Origin: a phage
Assembly (NCBI GenBank): GCA_014161675.1
Contig: GCA_014161675.1_4760.1
Direction: 5' to 3' (one strand)
DNA length: 64,000 bases
Shown: positions 2-37,242 of the stretch, piece by piece
Numbering within the stretch: the first letter of the stretch is position 1
How the letters are laid out: every line of letters begins with the position of its first letter
Program-made: the position numbers and the translations under genes
Notes under the pieces: model-generated
Told to the model about the DNA's origin: nothing
The model's input: only the letters and a program-made list of their open reading frames with translations
Database searches by the model: none

Positions 2-1651
2 GATCTATTATGGATTACGCCAGTACAAGATATTACAAGCGCGGCGATCTCCGGTATCGGTCAAAGCCCTACTGGTATTGTTGAAGGTTCAATGGTATTT
101 GGTTTGGCTTTAGATGAACGTTATTTAAACTGCGTTATTCTTGGTACTATTGCCGGACAATATACAGAGAAACCACTCACTACAGAGGGTTTTTGTGACC
201 CTTCTGGTGCATATCCTCGTTATATTGGTAATGATGTTAATATTCTTGCTCGTGGCGGTATTAACCCAGAAACCGGACAAACAACAAAACCTGATAGTGT
301 CTATATTCGAGATGAAAACACTGGAGTTGCAGTAAATCCAGACGACGAGCCATTAGACCAAATTCCGGTTGATGATAATCCTGATTTTACAATAGAAAAA
401 ATGCTGCGGGGCGATGAGGGATATCGCGAGAAATGGTATCTTGATTCAGAAGGATATCCGACAATAGGCATCGGGCATTTGATCATTTATAAGAAAACCA
501 GTGATCTTGGTATTATCAATAATGAACTTTCTAAGCTGGTAGGGCGTGAAGTTACAAACGGAAGACTTACCGCCGAAGAAGTTAGTAAAGTATTTGCTGA
601 CGATATAGAAAAGACTCGTCGTGATATGCGCAAACATCCACGAATTGCACCTGTCTATAATAAATGTAATGCCTCACGTCGTATGGCATTAGAAAATATG
701 GCGTTTCAAATGGGTGTTGGTGGATTGGGTAAATTTAAGAATAGTCTTGCTGCGATGTTAGCGGAAGAATGGAAACAAGCCTATGATGGATTACGTCAAT
801 CGGTATGGGCTAACCAAACTCCAGGACGCTCCAGCCGTGTTTCTAAAATTATTTTAACTGGTAACTTAGAATCATATGGCGTAATTGCTCCAAAGAAAGA
901 GGAATCAATTTCTGATGATCCGCGAGCACGTTTAAGAAATGCCCGTATTGCGGCCTATAAGACGCAGAGAGCAGAAGAAGACCCAGAAGCACCGTTTACC
1001 CCACAAGACACACGAATCATGTTTAAAGAGCCTAAGAGTTCGTATTCTGCAAGGTATCCTTATAACCATGTGTACGAGTCAGAGAGCGGTCATATTATCG
1101 AGATTGATGATACTCCTTCTCATGAGCGATATCATCGTAAACATCCTTCTGGTACATTTGAAGAAACCAGACCGGACGGAACGAGGGTAGAAAAGATTGA
1201 AGGCGATGATTATCTGATCGTTAAACAAGGCCGGAAAGTAAACGTTAAGGGTAATTTGCAAGTTGTTGTTGAAGGTGACGCGCAAGTTTATTATATGGGT
1301 AATGTGATGCAAACCGTTGATGGTAACGTCACGGAATTTATTCGTGGTAATGTTAATCAGACCGTTGAGGGTACAGCTAATATGCATGTTGTAGGTGATG
1401 TTACCGCTCAGCTTGACGCTAATTTAACGGCTAACGTCAAGGGTAATGCTGAATTAATGATCGAGGGTAACACTACCGAAACAATTAAAGGTAACTATGA
1501 TTTAACCGTTGAGGGTAATTTTAATATGACCGTCAATGGCACGAAATCAGATCAGGTTAATGGTGACTGGTCCCGTAATTGTGGTGCAAGCGTTAAAGAT
1601 ATTGCATCTGGTACAGTTAAAATTGATGGTAGCCGTATTGATCTTGGGTGA
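2..1651 (+). CDS. 5: gp5 baseplate hub / tail lysozyme, 5'-truncated at window edge
   Basis: Frame open from nt 2 with no upstream stop; T4-lysozyme-like segment 'MLRGDEGYREKWYLDSEGYPTIGIGHLI'; C-terminal VxGxxxV beta-helix repeats (GNVMQTVDGNVTEFIRGNVNQTVEG...). Confidence 0.8.
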   Translation, partial: DLLWITPVQDITSAAISGIGQSPTGIVEGSMVFGLALDERYLNCVILGTIAGQYTEKPLTTEGFCDPSGAYPRYIGNDVNILARGGINPETGQTTKPDSVYIRDENTGVAVNPDDEPLDQIPVDDNPDFTIEKMLRGDEGYREKWYLDSEGYPTIGIGHLIIYKKTSDLGIINNELSKLVGREVTNGRLTAEEVSKVFADDIEKTRRDMRKHPRIAPVYNKCNASRRMALENMAFQMGVGGLGKFKNSLAAMLAEEWKQAYDGLRQSVWANQTPGRSSRVSKIILTGNLESYGVIAPKKEESISDDPRARLRNARIAAYKTQRAEEDPEAPFTPQDTRIMFKEPKSSYSARYPYNHVYESESGHIIEIDDTPSHERYHRKHPSGTFEETRPDGTRVEKIEGDDYLIVKQGRKVNVKGNLQVVVEGDAQVYYMGNVMQTVDGNVTEFIRGNVNQTVEGTANMHVVGDVTAQLDANLTANVKGNAELMIEGNTTETIKGNYDLTVEGNFNMTVNGTKSDQVNGDWSRNCGASVKDIASGTVKIDGSRIDLG

Positions 1652-2226: not shown

Positions 2227-2519
2227 TGGCTGGATTATCCTACGATAAAGCTAAAACTACAGGGCACGGAAACTACCCACCTACGGTAATTAATGCAACT
2301 CAATCTAAGGTATTTGTTGAGGGTATCCCTGTATTAGTCGAAGGAGACCCAATTACACCACATACAAAAACAACAAAGCCTTATGATACACACGGGGGAA
2401 CTACGGTCGCCAGTACCCCGAAAGTATTTGTTACCGGAAAGAAAGCAATTCAAATGGCAGATCGTATTAGCTGTGGCGATACCGTCGCTATGGCATCACC
2501 GAAGGTATTCATAAAATGA
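2226..2519 (+). CDS. 5.4: gp5.4-like PAAR-type spike tip protein
   Basis: 97 aa, same length as T4 gp5.4; start overlaps upstream stop (TAATG); position between 5.1 and gp6. Confidence 0.65.
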
Positions 2520-4420
2520 CAAAGCAAAAGATTACACAAATTCCTGATATTTTTAATGCTGCTACATTCGATGAAATTAAAAGCGCATTAACAGACTGGA
2601 TGAGAAACCAGGAAGAATTTAAAGATTTTGATTTTAATGGTGCTGGTATTAACGTATTGATGGACTTGCTCGCATATAACACTCTGTATATTCAGCAATT
2701 CGCTAACGCCGCGCTATATGAATCTTTTATCAGAACGGCAATTAAGCGTAGTTCAGTTGTTCAAGCCGCGCAAGATTTAGGATATTTGCCAGCAAGTAAA
2801 ACTAGTGCATCGACTACAATTATGTTGCACGTAACACATCCTCGAAATCCGGCAAGTATTCGAATCCCACGAGGAACTAAATTTATTGCAAGTGTGGATC
2901 GCCAGACTTCTTACCCGTTTGTGACTACAGAAGACGTTGTGAGCGTTTTAGGTTCAAATGGTTTATATACGCCTATGCTTAAAGTCGCACAAGGTCGTAT
3001 TGTTCGTACAGAAATGTTATTTGATCCGAAGAAACAAATTCTGATCCGCGATCCTGATATTGACCGCGCTCAGGTTAAGTTGTGGGTAGATGGTGCTGAA
3101 TGGAAAGACTGGACGCGAGAAAGTATTGTTAATGCAACTGGCGCTAGTAATATTTTCTATATGCGTGAAACCGTAGACGGACATACTGAAATTTTCTTTG
3201 GTGAGGGTGAATCAACTTTATCTGCCGCTGGCGGTGCACTGGAAGCAAATTATATTGGTGGACTTAAGCCGTCAACTGGTGCTAATATTGTTATCGAATA
3301 TATCAGCACTAAAGGCGCGGAAGCAAACGGTTCAGTTAATTTCACATACGCGGATACATTGGCATCAATTTCTATTGTTAAAATTATTGAGAATCCGACA
3401 AATGATCGTGATTATGTCGGTGCAGATGGTGGTGGTGATCCTGAATCAATCGAACGTATCCGTGAACTTGCTCCGGTAATGCGTGAATCTCAGCGTCGTT
3501 GTGTGACTGCTTCCGACTATGAGGCTTTTGTGTCTAGCCGTTTTGGTAGTATTGTTCAGGCGGTACAATGTTTCACCGACCGAGAAAAACCGGGTTATGC
3601 TTTTGTTGCTGTTAAGCCTAAATCTGGCTTGCGCTTGACAACCGTTCAAAAAGAAGATATGCGGGATTATCTGGCAAAATATAACCTTGCCCCTATCACG
3701 CCGAGCATCATTGACCCTAACTATCTGTATATTAAACAGAATATTAAAGTTTCCTATTCAATCAACGACTTGTCAGAATCAGAGCAGTGGTTGCGCGGTG
3801 CGGTTATTGATCAGATTGATGCATATTATACCGACGAAGTGGAAATTTTTAACCAGACATTTAGTAAGTCTAAAATGCTTGCTCGTATTGACAAAGCTGA
3901 TGTATCTGTGATAGGTTCTAGTGCAGAAATCGAGATGGTGCGAGAGATCGACAACTTCTATAAAGCACCGATGGCGGGAATCAAGTTTTTAAACCAGTAT
4001 AAGAGCGGAATCAAGTCTAGTTCATTCAACTTCGAAAAGGACGACAAGCAATATCCGATCCATTATGTAAGTACAGAAATGAACAAAGAATCCGGTTTAG
4101 CTAAATTGCTGGTTGGACCTTTCCCTGTTGATTCTACAATCGCTTTACCGCACTATTCCGGCACTGATTTTGATAAAGAGGTTATTGACGGGGCGGACCT
4201 ATACTTTGAGGTTGGAGAGGTTCAGCATTATGACGACCTTATTTCATGGGATCTGGGTAAACTGAATATCAATAGCGATCGCTTTACTGGTTCATATATT
4301 GAGTTGACAGCTAAACCGATTGCTGATAACATCTTTACTAAAGACGGTTCTTTGATCGTGTTTGAAAACGATCTCCGTCCTCAGTACACAACTATTAGTC
4401 TGGAGGCAATTGCTCAATGA
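2516..4420 (+). CDS. 6: gp6 baseplate wedge protein
   Basis: 634 aa (T4 about 660); synteny 5.4-6-7-8; start overlaps upstream stop. Confidence 0.8.
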
Positions 4421-35001: not shown

Positions 35002-36216
35002 TTAAGCAGGATGCGTTTCACGAATGCGTAGAACTCGATCTAACGTCTCTCGGTCCAGTTTATGTAACTCTTTGGACTGATACATGAAACCATTGCGAGA
35101 TTCCATGCAAGTGCAATCACTATATTTTTCTTCCGCTGCCGCGATTGTCTCCAGATCTTTGGCGTACTTGCTGGTTGAATAAACTTCTCGGTTACGCCAC
35201 TCTAACCCAGCCTCATTGAATTTAACAATCTCGTCAAATACCCACCATCCAATGTAGATAAATGAAGTTTTGCGCCACGGGATCGGGTGTACGTAACGAA
35301 ACATTTTAACAACTTCCATTGAACATTTTCTACTTGTACTTGTTGCAACTTCTACTGTTTCATCTTCGATCTGTTGATATAGTTTAGCAACACACCAGAA
35401 TTTGGCTGTGTCATCGTAAGTAGCACTCTCTTTGAACAGATGACCGTCTGGAGTGATAGAAAATCCTTCCAGTGCTTCGCCAACCTCACTACCGATCAGA
35501 GTCGGTGACGGTTGCCCTTCGCGCTGCAAATACCAGTTATGTTTGATCGTCAATTCAGGCATACCGCTAGAATCGCCTACAATGTTCTCTGACACAACAT
35601 AATTAAGTAAGATCTCATTACCTAGTGCCACGGTCTTTGATTCCACCACATCCTGATCTACGTTCATTGTTGCCAGCATGATTTTAGTCGATGCGCTAGC
35701 GGCTGAATCTTCCGACTCACCCCACACTTTTACAGTATACACGCCGTTTTTATCTGCTGTAAATTCTTGGATCGTAATATCCTTTTTTGTGTCTATAACG
35801 TCATCGCCCTTACTCCAACTATAATGTAGTTCATAGTTGTCTGATGGAGTCTTCCCACCCGAAAATTTTACTGTTGCATGTAATTCTACGTTTGTTTGTG
35901 ATGATACGTAGAAATGCTGCGGTTCGGTGATATTTACGATTAATTCAGCTTCTTCCATGAGGAAAACTTCAGATTCTACTGATGTCATCGTATCGGTATC
36001 CTGTACCGTTACTTTATAGCTACCCGCATTTTCACTTGTTGCGTCTGCTACAGTTAGCGTAGCTGTGCTATTTTCATGCGGTTGGTCGTCTTTTGTCCAT
36101 GTATATGTCAAATTGCTGGGTAATGGTTCGTCACCCGCTACAGTCGCCGTTAAGGTGAAACCATCTCCAGCAAGAAAACATCTTTTGTCAGATTTAATTG
36201 ATACTGTGAAAGTCAT
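35002..36216 (-). CDS. hoc: Hoc highly immunogenic outer capsid protein
   Basis: 'MTFTVSI' start; Ig-like repeats ('LTYTWTKDDQ', 'YSWSKGDD'); C-terminal 'YVHPIPWRKTSFIYIGWWVFDEI' and 'ESRNGF' match T4 Hoc. Confidence 0.8.
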   Translation of the reverse strand: MTFTVSIKSDKRCFLAGDGFTLTATVAGDEPLPSNLTYTWTKDDQPHENSTATLTVADATSENAGSYKVTVQDTDTMTSVESEVFLMEEAELIVNITEPQHFYVSSQTNVELHATVKFSGGKTPSDNYELHYSWSKGDDVIDTKKDITIQEFTADKNGVYTVKVWGESEDSAASASTKIMLATMNVDQDVVESKTVALGNEILLNYVVSENIVGDSSGMPELTIKHNWYLQREGQPSPTLIGSEVGEALEGFSITPDGHLFKESATYDDTAKFWCVAKLYQQIEDETVEVATSTSRKCSMEVVKMFRYVHPIPWRKTSFIYIGWWVFDEIVKFNEAGLEWRNREVYSTSKYAKDLETIAAAEEKYSDCTCMESRNGFMYQSKELHKLDRETLDRVLRIRETHPA

Positions 36217-36385
36217 ATAAAGCCACTCCCATAGAAAATCCGAATTTAATTAATTGAAATAGTTGATTGCCATCAACCAGATAACCATTGCGAGATTCCA
36301 ATACATGAGTATTAGAATAGTGATGCAACGAGGCCGAAATAGTATCGATCTCGTCTGGGTATTTGTTCTGTTTGATGTAATACAT
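36194..36385 (-). CDS. small ORF resembling the Hoc C-terminal tail (possible fragment)
   Basis: 63 aa; 'KYPDEID...ESRNGYLVDGNQ' parallels T4 Hoc 'DYPEVDVQESRNGYIIHK'; overlaps hoc start by 23 nt. Confidence 0.3.
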   Translation of the reverse strand: MYYIKQNKYPDEIDTISASLHHYSNTHVLESRNGYLVDGNQLFQLIKFGFSMGVALYDFHSIN

Positions 36386-36481
36386 TGATTTTGTTAGACA
36401 TGTAGTATCCTCTTTTTAATTGCATAACGGAACTACAATTAAAATTATAACAAATATTTCACAACTTTTATCACCCAAAAA

Positions 36482-37207
36482 TTACTTGAGTGTGTGGAAT
36501 TGGCTGTGTTTAGTCTCTCGCACCTTGACAGACCCATCGCGTTTGATATAATAGATCAGTGACTTGAGGGTGTCGTGTACATACGCGTGCGGGAAACGCT
36601 CTGGATACTTCTTCCAATCTGGAGTATTAACGATCCAGTCGAAAATCCACCACGGGCAGGAGTAGTAACCACGACCGCCACCGATCAAGCAAATGGTCGG
36701 ACGGAAGCCAGTAAGATCGCAAAATGAATCAGTGTCATGTGCTGGGGAACGATGCTCTGCTTCGTTAGAGAAAATGTTGGCTACCGGAGATTCCACTTTA
36801 ACTTCCGGTGCTTCTTCAACATCTGACTTAACTTCTTCGACCACTGGTTCAACTGCCGGAGATTCTTCTTTTGTTTCTTCAATGACGATCTCAGGTTCTT
36901 TCATTGCTTCAACCAGAGACGGATCAACTTCGTCGAATACCACTTTATCATCTGCGGTGTCTGCTGCCAGAATAAGATCGTTAATACTGGTTCCTTCTGC
37001 CGGAGTTTCTTCTTCCATTTCGGAAGCCAGTTTAGTTAATTCTGTTTCTACGAACTCGATCATGTTCTCTAGCGAGAGCGTCTTTTTGACCTTTATATCA
37101 AATTGTTTTGCGTAGTCCGCTAATTCTGTTTTAGCGGCTTTCTGTGATTCTTTGTCGTCGGACGCCGCAATAGCGCGGAGTTCTTCGAAATATTCTTTAT
37201 CAAACAT
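36482..37207 (-). CDS. inh: Inh-like protein with Hoc-type C-terminal domain
   Basis: Acidic middle region; C-terminal 'CPWWIFDWIVNTPDWKKYPE' parallels Hoc 'GWWVFDEI'; sits at the T4 inh position next to hoc. Confidence 0.45.
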   Translation of the reverse strand: MFDKEYFEELRAIAASDDKESQKAAKTELADYAKQFDIKVKKTLSLENMIEFVETELTKLASEMEEETPAEGTSINDLILAADTADDKVVFDEVDPSLVEAMKEPEIVIEETKEESPAVEPVVEEVKSDVEEAPEVKVESPVANIFSNEAEHRSPAHDTDSFCDLTGFRPTICLIGGGRGYYSCPWWIFDWIVNTPDWKKYPERFPHAYVHDTLKSLIYYIKRDGSVKVRETKHSQFHTLK

Positions 37208-37234: not shown

Positions 37235-37242
37235 TATAAATA
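37235..37242 (+). promoter_or_regulatory. T4-type late promoter (TATAAATA) for uvsW
   Basis: Exact TATAAATA about 37 nt before uvsW ATG 37279. Confidence 0.5.

Follow-up and report, generated by a model that had tools for sequence, protein, structure and literature searches.

A short open reading frame between inh and hoc of a Krischvirus as the very probable stub of a decayed second hoc gene

The DNA analysed here (the window, 64,000 nucleotides (nt) from GenBank assembly GCA_014161675.1, contig GCA_014161675.1_4760.1) derives from a Krischvirus, that is, an RB49-like, T4-type phage. On its minus strand, the genes inh and hoc flank an open reading frame (ORF) of 63 amino acids (aa), termed ORF63, in the order inh, ORF63, hoc. 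A preliminary description had noted a Hoc-type C-terminal motif in all three products and suggested domain exchange between hoc and inh, with the small ORF being either a recombination remnant or a mini capsid-binding protein. Our comparisons indicate that the ORF63 region is very probably the out-of-frame stub of a second hoc gene (named hoc2 here), left by ordinary gene decay; thus the small ORF does appear to be a detached tail, yet one produced by the decay of hoc2 and not by exchange between hoc and inh.

ORF63 and the second hoc gene of relatives

All strings quoted in the preliminary description are present in the translations where it had placed them, and the similarity between ORF63 and Hoc is well above chance. 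By BLASTP, ORF63 residues 7-45 align with Hoc residues 349-387 (14/39 identical, 36%; E 2e-8), and against a hidden Markov model (HMM) for Hoc's C-terminal domain (CTD) built from 134 sequences ORF63 reaches E 8e-14; PHROG Hoc families also match it. The HMM match is confined to positions 48-87 of 91, the second half of the capsid-binding domain of Hoc. Of the motif said to occur three times within 2.2 kb, therefore, two copies are full domains and the third is a half-domain fragment only. In a tblastn search of 50,697 phage records, ORF63 as such was matched in 59 Krischvirus records only; outside Krischvirus it matched Hoc C-termini alone, with no independent homologues. Protein word-index searches were uninformative, with just 2 proteins retrieved for ORF63 and 1 for the Hoc CTD; a scan of viral contigs returned two loci, one of which (L003) carries an intact hoc2.

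The 2.5 kb around ORF63 is 97-99% identical to RB49-like Krischvirus coliphages such as vB_Eco_SAP, TB34 and kvi. In the relatives JK32 and G2248, a coding sequence (CDS) of 846 aa annotated as a head outer capsid protein lies between inh and the ordinary hoc, so that an intact hoc2 is found at the syntenic position. Its product, which begins with MSDKINILHQT and ends with ...RYVHPIPWRRTSFQYQGYWVLDEI...KYPDEIETIAASLHHYSNTHVLESRNGYLVDGTQLF before the stop, consists of many immunoglobulin (Ig)-like domains and a Hoc-type capsid-binding domain. Likewise, the IMG/VR contig L003, whose hoc2 starts with the nucleotides ATGTCTAACAAAATCAATGTATTACATCAAACAGAA (encoding MSNKINVLHQTE), and the Logan contig L021 carry hoc2 between inh and hoc. 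A tblastn search with hoc2 found the full-length gene in exactly six records (JK32, Brandy, SSG23, SFHK24, G2248 and UPWr_E1). JK32-type Krischviruses thus encode two Hocs side by side, a long one of 846 aa and a short one of 408 aa, each ending in a capsid-binding domain. Among the three lineages compared, the hoc2 proteins share 63-71% identity and all are intact; because lineages that far apart have nevertheless kept the gene whole, hoc2 can be taken as an old and functional gene where it is present.

Both ends of hoc2 are retained in the window. By blastn, window positions 36470..36370 correspond to positions 10..111 of the JK32 locus, which comprise the spacer between inh and hoc2 plus 32 nt of the hoc2 5′ end, and 36372..36100 correspond to JK32 2502..2786, which comprise the 3′-terminal 119 nt of hoc2 together with the spacer and the beginning of hoc; the 3′ remnant also aligned to L003. 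The ~2.39 kb of hoc2 between these two JK32-matching blocks is missing in the window. What is left, 32-36 nt from the 5′ end and ~119 nt from the 3′ end, lies in frames that differ by one, so that both gene ends surround the junction and the reading frame is disrupted across it (Table 1). The ATG of ORF63 (36385) is formed out of frame across hoc2 codons 6-7 (AAT GTA), and its leading residues, MYYIKQN, are an out-of-frame reading of the hoc2 residues I-N-V-L-H-Q-T-E; only from K8 on does ORF63 read the old C-terminal frame of hoc2 (YPDEIDTISASLHHYSNTHVLESR is an example peptide of ORF63). Because the hoc2 stop TAA has become CAA, the frame extends across what was once the spacer and reaches 23 nt into hoc. 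The terminator between hoc2 and hoc, annotated in G2248 and seen as a hairpin in JK32, L003 and G2248, is lost in the window.

This anatomy also accounts for the apparent likeness between ORF63 and Inh. Pairwise comparison of the two returned no significant similarity (E 7.2); the MYYIKQN stretch being an out-of-frame reading of the hoc2 5′ end, its YYIK match to Inh is due to chance. The pairing of KYPD in ORF63 with KYPE in Inh fared no better, as the two, read from the alignments, are also out of register.

A less reduced form of the same remnant is found in phages Phi1 and ECD7, where 34 N-terminal codons of hoc2, MSNKINVLHQTEDPVYGSVGHPLLLKIVVSTADF, are kept and joined to the same 3′ point as in the window. 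Relative to Phi1 and ECD7, the window and RB49 carry a further deletion of 75 bp flanked by the direct repeat CAGAA. Phi1 ORF168.1 (ORFan168.1) is the 29-codon frame of the window with 25 more codons, while the C-terminal frame of Phi1 and ECD7, as read from the aligned sequences, has a TAA and a TAG upstream and no ATG. Therefore, ORF63 exists because the second deletion removed stop codons that are present in Phi1-type sequences. Among the 59 records, the match starts at ORF63 residue 1 in 41 and at residue 6 or 7 in 12; the other 6 have hoc2 intact. Six of the 41 residue-1 records were inspected and all are window-type; two of the 12 others (Phi1 and ECD7) were inspected and are Phi1-type, and the ten further records have the same match pattern as these two.

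The following course of events would explain these states. A Krischvirus ancestor would have carried inh, hoc2 and hoc in this order. In the lineage leading to RB49, Phi1 and the window, one internal deletion of ~2.3 kb of hoc2 would have fused ~34 codons of the N-terminus, out of frame, with the final ~37 codons, a state that would survive in Phi1 and ECD7. A 75-bp deletion between CAGAA repeats would then have given rise to the state of RB49 and the window, with 12 N-terminal codons left, removing two stop codons and putting an out-of-frame ATG in frame with the old C-terminal codons. Together with the mutation of the stop from TAA to CAA, this second step would have created an accidental ORF of 63 codons, the hairpin of the hoc2-hoc terminator being lost as well. 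As far as sequence comparison can establish it, the origin of ORF63 as a hoc2 pseudogene stub is demonstrated by these relationships.

Table 1. Coordinates of the genes and hoc2 remnants at the inh-hoc locus of the window
Feature	Position	Strand	Description
inh	37207..36482	minus	241 aa; phrog_1051, E 1e-76; PF26097 Phage_Inh_N and PF26098 Phage_Inh_C
hoc2 5′ remnant	36366..36414	minus	Shine-Dalgarno AAGAGGA (36408-36414), ATG (36399-36401) and first 12 codons, MSNKINVLHQTE
29-codon frame from the hoc2 start	36312..36401	minus	MSNKINVLHQTE followed by QIPRRDRYYFGLVASLF and a stop; the second part is the hoc2 3′ end out of frame
ORF63	36385..36194	minus	63-aa ORF between inh and hoc; phrog_32100, E 1e-47; RB49 hypothetical ORF168.2
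Deletion junction	36366-36370	minus	within a CAGAA repeat
hoc2 3′ remnant	36254..36365	minus	last 36 codons (KYPDEID...VDGNQLF) and the former stop, now CAA (36254-36256)
Former hoc2-hoc intergenic spacer	36217..36253	minus	hairpin GCCGACCTTCGGGTCGGCTTTT of JK32/L003 shrunk to TTCGGATTTT; hoc Shine-Dalgarno GGGAG kept
hoc	36216..35002	minus	404 aa; phrog_1149, E 1.5e-79

Gene identities in Table 1 are from PHROG and precomputed Pfam matches, the Inh family names being those of the precomputed matches. Separately, an 18-nt stretch of the hoc2 remnant that encodes ESRNG (36283-36300) matches the resident hoc of related loci with 100% identity, its counterpart in the hoc of the window lying near 35100; this identity provides a short substrate on which further recombination or deletion may act.

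Translation and constraint of ORF63, and the alternatives

The ATG of ORF63 is preceded by no Shine-Dalgarno sequence and lies 16 nt inside the frame that starts at the hoc2 ATG, which has a strong one. Ribosomes loading at this kept Shine-Dalgarno and ATG would make a 29-residue nonsense peptide, and the 29-codon frame is the one that ribosomes would be expected to use. Thus ORF63 lacks a conserved start codon with a ribosome-binding site. As to a promoter for the stub, the T4-type late-promoter motif TATAAATA is not present nearby on the minus strand, and no properly spaced sigma-70 site is found upstream of the hoc2 start. ORF63 is presumably translated little or not at all.

Substitution patterns differ between intact and remnant copies. 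Over 37 shared codons, pairs of intact hoc2 genes show 20-21 synonymous and no nonsynonymous changes, while the window and its nearest intact hoc2 differ by 3 synonymous and 4 nonsynonymous changes (including the loss of the stop); among themselves, the remnants show no synonymous and at least three distinct nonsynonymous changes (G>D, T>I and Q>K). The difference between remnant and intact patterns is significant although the counts are small (P value=0.002 to 6e-5; Fisher test). No purifying selection on ORF63 was detected with these small numbers; its substitutions look unconstrained, and the direction is clear.

The structure of the domain points the same way. In T4 Hoc, residues Y293, H295, R300, Y304, W306, W309 and W310 contact gp23*, D313 braces the ESRNG loop, and this loop touches all six gp23 subunits (PMC10385173). 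By alignment, ORF63 is without counterparts of all of these eight residues. The full domain of the T4 and RB49 Hoc (Fokine et al. 2023, PMC10385173; PDB 8T1X, 8T9R and 5VF3) is present in the Hoc of the window and in the hoc2 of its relatives (YVHPIPWR..GWWV.DEI..W..ESRNG); ORF63, by comparison, keeps its last ~37 residues including ESRNG, which do not make a domain. The complete domain of ~75-85 aa (four strands plus a three-helix bundle) is thus not found in ORF63, whose only conserved residues are those of ESRNG, the first-half residues being absent and residues 1-7 being derived from out-of-frame hoc2 5′ codons. Because strands 1-2 and the start of helix 1 are absent, the ORF63 product, if made, could presumably neither fold nor bind the capsid. 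ORF63 is almost certainly non-functional, to judge from these features.

The preliminary description had also raised the possibility that ORF63 is a functional mini capsid-binding protein or, in a related form, a Hoc-modulating one that, for example, competes for or primes the gp23 hexamer centre. ORF63 does keep the ESRNG loop, and stand-alone Hoc-CTD proteins of 70-95 aa exist elsewhere (P0134, P0192, P0208, P0222 and the 91-aa protein of Klebsiella phage ALF_ER54), but nearly all of these natural ones have the whole domain including its WW half (P0208 is without strand 1 only), whereas ORF63 covers less than half of the HMM. Given also its relaxed substitutions, its first seven residues of out-of-frame junk, its poorly placed start and the upstream stops and missing ATG of the Phi1-type relatives examined, which have no such ORF, this role is quite unlikely. 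A few points nevertheless weigh against regarding ORF63 as a mere stub: the ORF is open in all window-type copies read (the window, TB34, RB49 and L022-L024), although these are 95-100% identical so that openness carries little weight in either direction; few substitutions could be counted; and some translation of ORF63 is conceivable. A different explanation, in which a +1 frameshift leads from the frame of the hoc2 start (MSNKINVLHQTE) into that of the C-terminal half-domain and yields a ~50-aa product from a strong ribosome-binding site, draws on the good Shine-Dalgarno and ATG (36414-36399) kept in all lineages and on a C-terminal frame that is +1 to that ATG. However, no obvious slippery or shifty site was seen on reading the sequence, the 5′ frame does not reach its own stop until 17 codons further on, half of the domain would still be missing from the product, constraint is relaxed, and a kept Shine-Dalgarno and ATG are expected for a young deletion; such a frameshift is thus highly improbable.

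Exchange or recombination between hoc and inh, proposed as a recent event in this genome behind the three motif copies, must be considered equally improbable. The two genes are adjacent and WW(I/V)FD.IV is common to their products, yet ORF63 is the 3′ end of a third gene, hoc2, that is internally deleted here with both of its ends present, and shows no similarity to Inh. Furthermore, the C-terminal region of Inh (Inh_C) of the window is 39-56% identical to that of other Inh proteins across 12 T4-like phages but shares only about 15-25% identity with the Hoc CTD; therefore the split between Inh and Hoc predates these phages, and these identities rule out a recent exchange. Decay of hoc2 is the preferred origin of ORF63.

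The C-terminus of Inh and the Hoc capsid-binding domain

The C-terminal ~65-75 residues of Inh, encoded at about 36485-36706, form a homologue of the capsid-binding domain of Hoc. Pairwise, the similarity of Inh and Hoc is borderline and confined to WWIFDWIV/WWVFDEIV (E 0.054). By profile, it is significant: the last 80 Inh residues of 12 T4-like phages (with Escherichia, Acinetobacter, Salmonella, Klebsiella, Aeromonas, Serratia, Edwardsiella and Cronobacter hosts) were aligned and compared by hhalign with an alignment of 13 Hoc CTDs (94.8%, E 5e-8, score 43.9, 59 columns), while 300 column shuffles gave a mean score of 11.4 (standard deviation 2.7, maximum 21.5; 0/300 at half the real score) and the reversed profile 10.3. 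Against the 134-sequence Hoc CTD alignment, Inh_C reached 96.9% (E 1.6e-10, score 55.2). Moreover, 11/11 Inh proteins match the Hoc CTD HMM at their C-terminus (18-25 bits). Homology at the superfamily level is thus found over about 60 columns. The likeness of Inh and Hoc asserted in the preliminary description is borne out by these profiles, in a register other than the one it had used: GY.T.PWWIYDWI...PDWK...TL.SL...V.IRETRNSSF of Inh corresponds to AYIW.GWWVMDEI...KDWK...TLAKM...VDVQESRNGYI of Hoc, and it is V.(V/I)RETRNS of Inh (VKVRETKHS in the window), not YYIKRDG, that pairs with VDVQESRNG of Hoc.

Low-confidence AF2 models of Inh (pLDDT 52.8 and 59.5) have an order of elements, E-E-H-h-H-E-E, that matches the published description of the Hoc CTD; fold searches with these models returned no Hoc chain, and a sequence search of the PDB with Inh found nothing. 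A word-index search with Inh listed only relatives of at least 88% identity, a diversity too small for structure prediction. No mention of a relationship between Inh and Hoc was found in the searchable literature, Pfam hits or T4 RefSeq notes. The homology of Inh_C and the Hoc CTD is well supported and apparently unremarked, and its presence in all 12 T4-like phages sampled marks it as ancient.

Compared with the T4 and RB49 Hoc CTD, Inh_C aligns over the start of the WW helix, DWK and the E-(S/T)-R-N loop; it differs in belonging to another Pfam family (PF26098) and in having no HP.P.R motif. Inh is annotated as a prohead-protease inhibitor and minor head protein, whereas Hoc is an outer decoration fibre. 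Two elements that contact gp23 in Hoc, namely the WW residues and the E-(S/T)-R-N loop, are conserved in Inh, and Inh may be anchored to gp23 capsomers through Inh_C. As a tentative proposal, held as possible but not as probable, Inh_C (Phage_Inh_C) could be a diverged Hoc-type module for binding gp23 capsomers that tethers the prohead-protease inhibitor of the T4 family to the shell by a Hoc-type contact, with the start of the WW helix and the E-(S/T)-R-N loop as putative contacts at the capsomer axis. Two points count against it: Inh residues 231-235 (36503-36517), the loop that aligns with the gp23-contacting ESRNG loop of Hoc, read ETKHS in Krischvirus versus E(T/S)RNS in all 11 other T4-like phages sampled, and capsid binding by Inh_C is a putative role only.

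The same end of inh also carries, in antisense, a perfect sigma-70 consensus on the plus strand (36525-36552; TTGACA, 16 nt, TG-TATAAT; 12/12) directed toward uvsW. All Krischvirus loci in which this part of inh is covered have the 28-nt promoter sequence unchanged; its conservation may reflect the overlapped codons, which encode YYIKRDGSVK of Inh.

The locus, related systems and implications

The window Hoc matches the crystal structure of RB49 Hoc (3SHS) over its residues 1-304 and, over residues 296-381, the chain of T4 Hoc in 5VF3/8T1X (E 1e-11). Following the hoc stop, a terminator hairpin (34990-34971) and then a perfect 12/12 sigma-70 promoter (34954-34927) lie on the minus strand, an arrangement that resembles the promoter-early stem-loop cassettes tied to hoc in Arbiol et al. 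2010 (PMC2839356), and a similar promoter occupies the post-hoc position in all related loci. On the other side, uvsW lies upstream on the plus strand, and the late-promoter motif TATAAATA is found at 37235-37242, 22 nt 5′ of its ORF, which fits late transcription of uvsW; on the minus strand, AATAAATA (37260-37253) precedes inh. In the record nearest to the window, vB_Eco_TB34, inh and uvsW are each annotated as two CDSs (L001 3184-3908 and 3979-5480). Unlike in that annotation, each is one single ORF in the window, and the split genes of the vB_Eco_TB34 record are probably due to sequencing or assembly frameshifts.

A HMMER scan of 1.84 billion representatives with the window Hoc CTD found the domain in 121 clusters, in most of them at the C-terminus, in some at the N-terminus and in a few alone as proteins of 70-95 aa. 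For example, in Klebsiella phage ALF_ER54 (L011 6335-7154) two small Hoc-type genes stand in tandem ~1 kb downstream of inh, from which two unrelated genes separate them; one encodes a 177-aa protein of one Ig-like domain plus CTD and the other a 91-aa protein comprising little more than the capsid-binding domain. Two Hoc-like genes have been described in each of Serratia phage Muldoon and Enterobacter phage PG7 (PMC10385173); JK32-type Krischviruses similarly carry two Hocs, while in the window the long copy is reduced to a stub. A literature search found no paper describing the Krischvirus Hoc pair.

Decay of hoc has parallels. In the T2 record PV958097 (L008 4362-5351), hoc is annotated as three fragments and in Mosigvirus OLB35 (L019 4292-5422) as two, which are cases of independent hoc decay in T-even phages. 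Like the window, they show that hoc is dispensable and found broken; there, however, the sole copy of hoc lies in several fragments, whereas in the window a paralogue was removed by clean internal deletion and the other hoc is intact.

The DNA of ORF63 has been listed before. Arbiol et al. 2010 reported RB49 ORF168.2 as a newly added ORF and phi1 ORFan168.1 as phage-specific, both near the variable hoc and of unknown function (PMC2839356). RB49 ORF168.2 is the DNA of ORF63 and phi1 ORFan168.1 is the 5′-frame reading in Phi1; unlike in that listing, both appear here as two readings of one decayed hoc2. RB49 ORF168.2, phi1 ORFan168.1 and phrog_32100 would thus all stand for a single decayed gene and are not to be regarded as phage-specific orphans, and the locus offers a clean stepwise case of paralogue gain and loss in the dispensable, variable hoc region. 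Two Hoc fibres that differ greatly in length occur in some Krischviruses, and both must use the single binding position at the centre of each capsomer. For Inh, which is poorly studied, the homology of its C-terminus to the Hoc CTD provides a concrete idea of how it attaches to the T4 head and extends the reuse of the Hoc capsid anchor to Inh, which is of relevance to T4 display and vector engineering. If the proposed tether is true, Inh might sit at, or mark, the centres of prohead capsomers before Hoc can bind.

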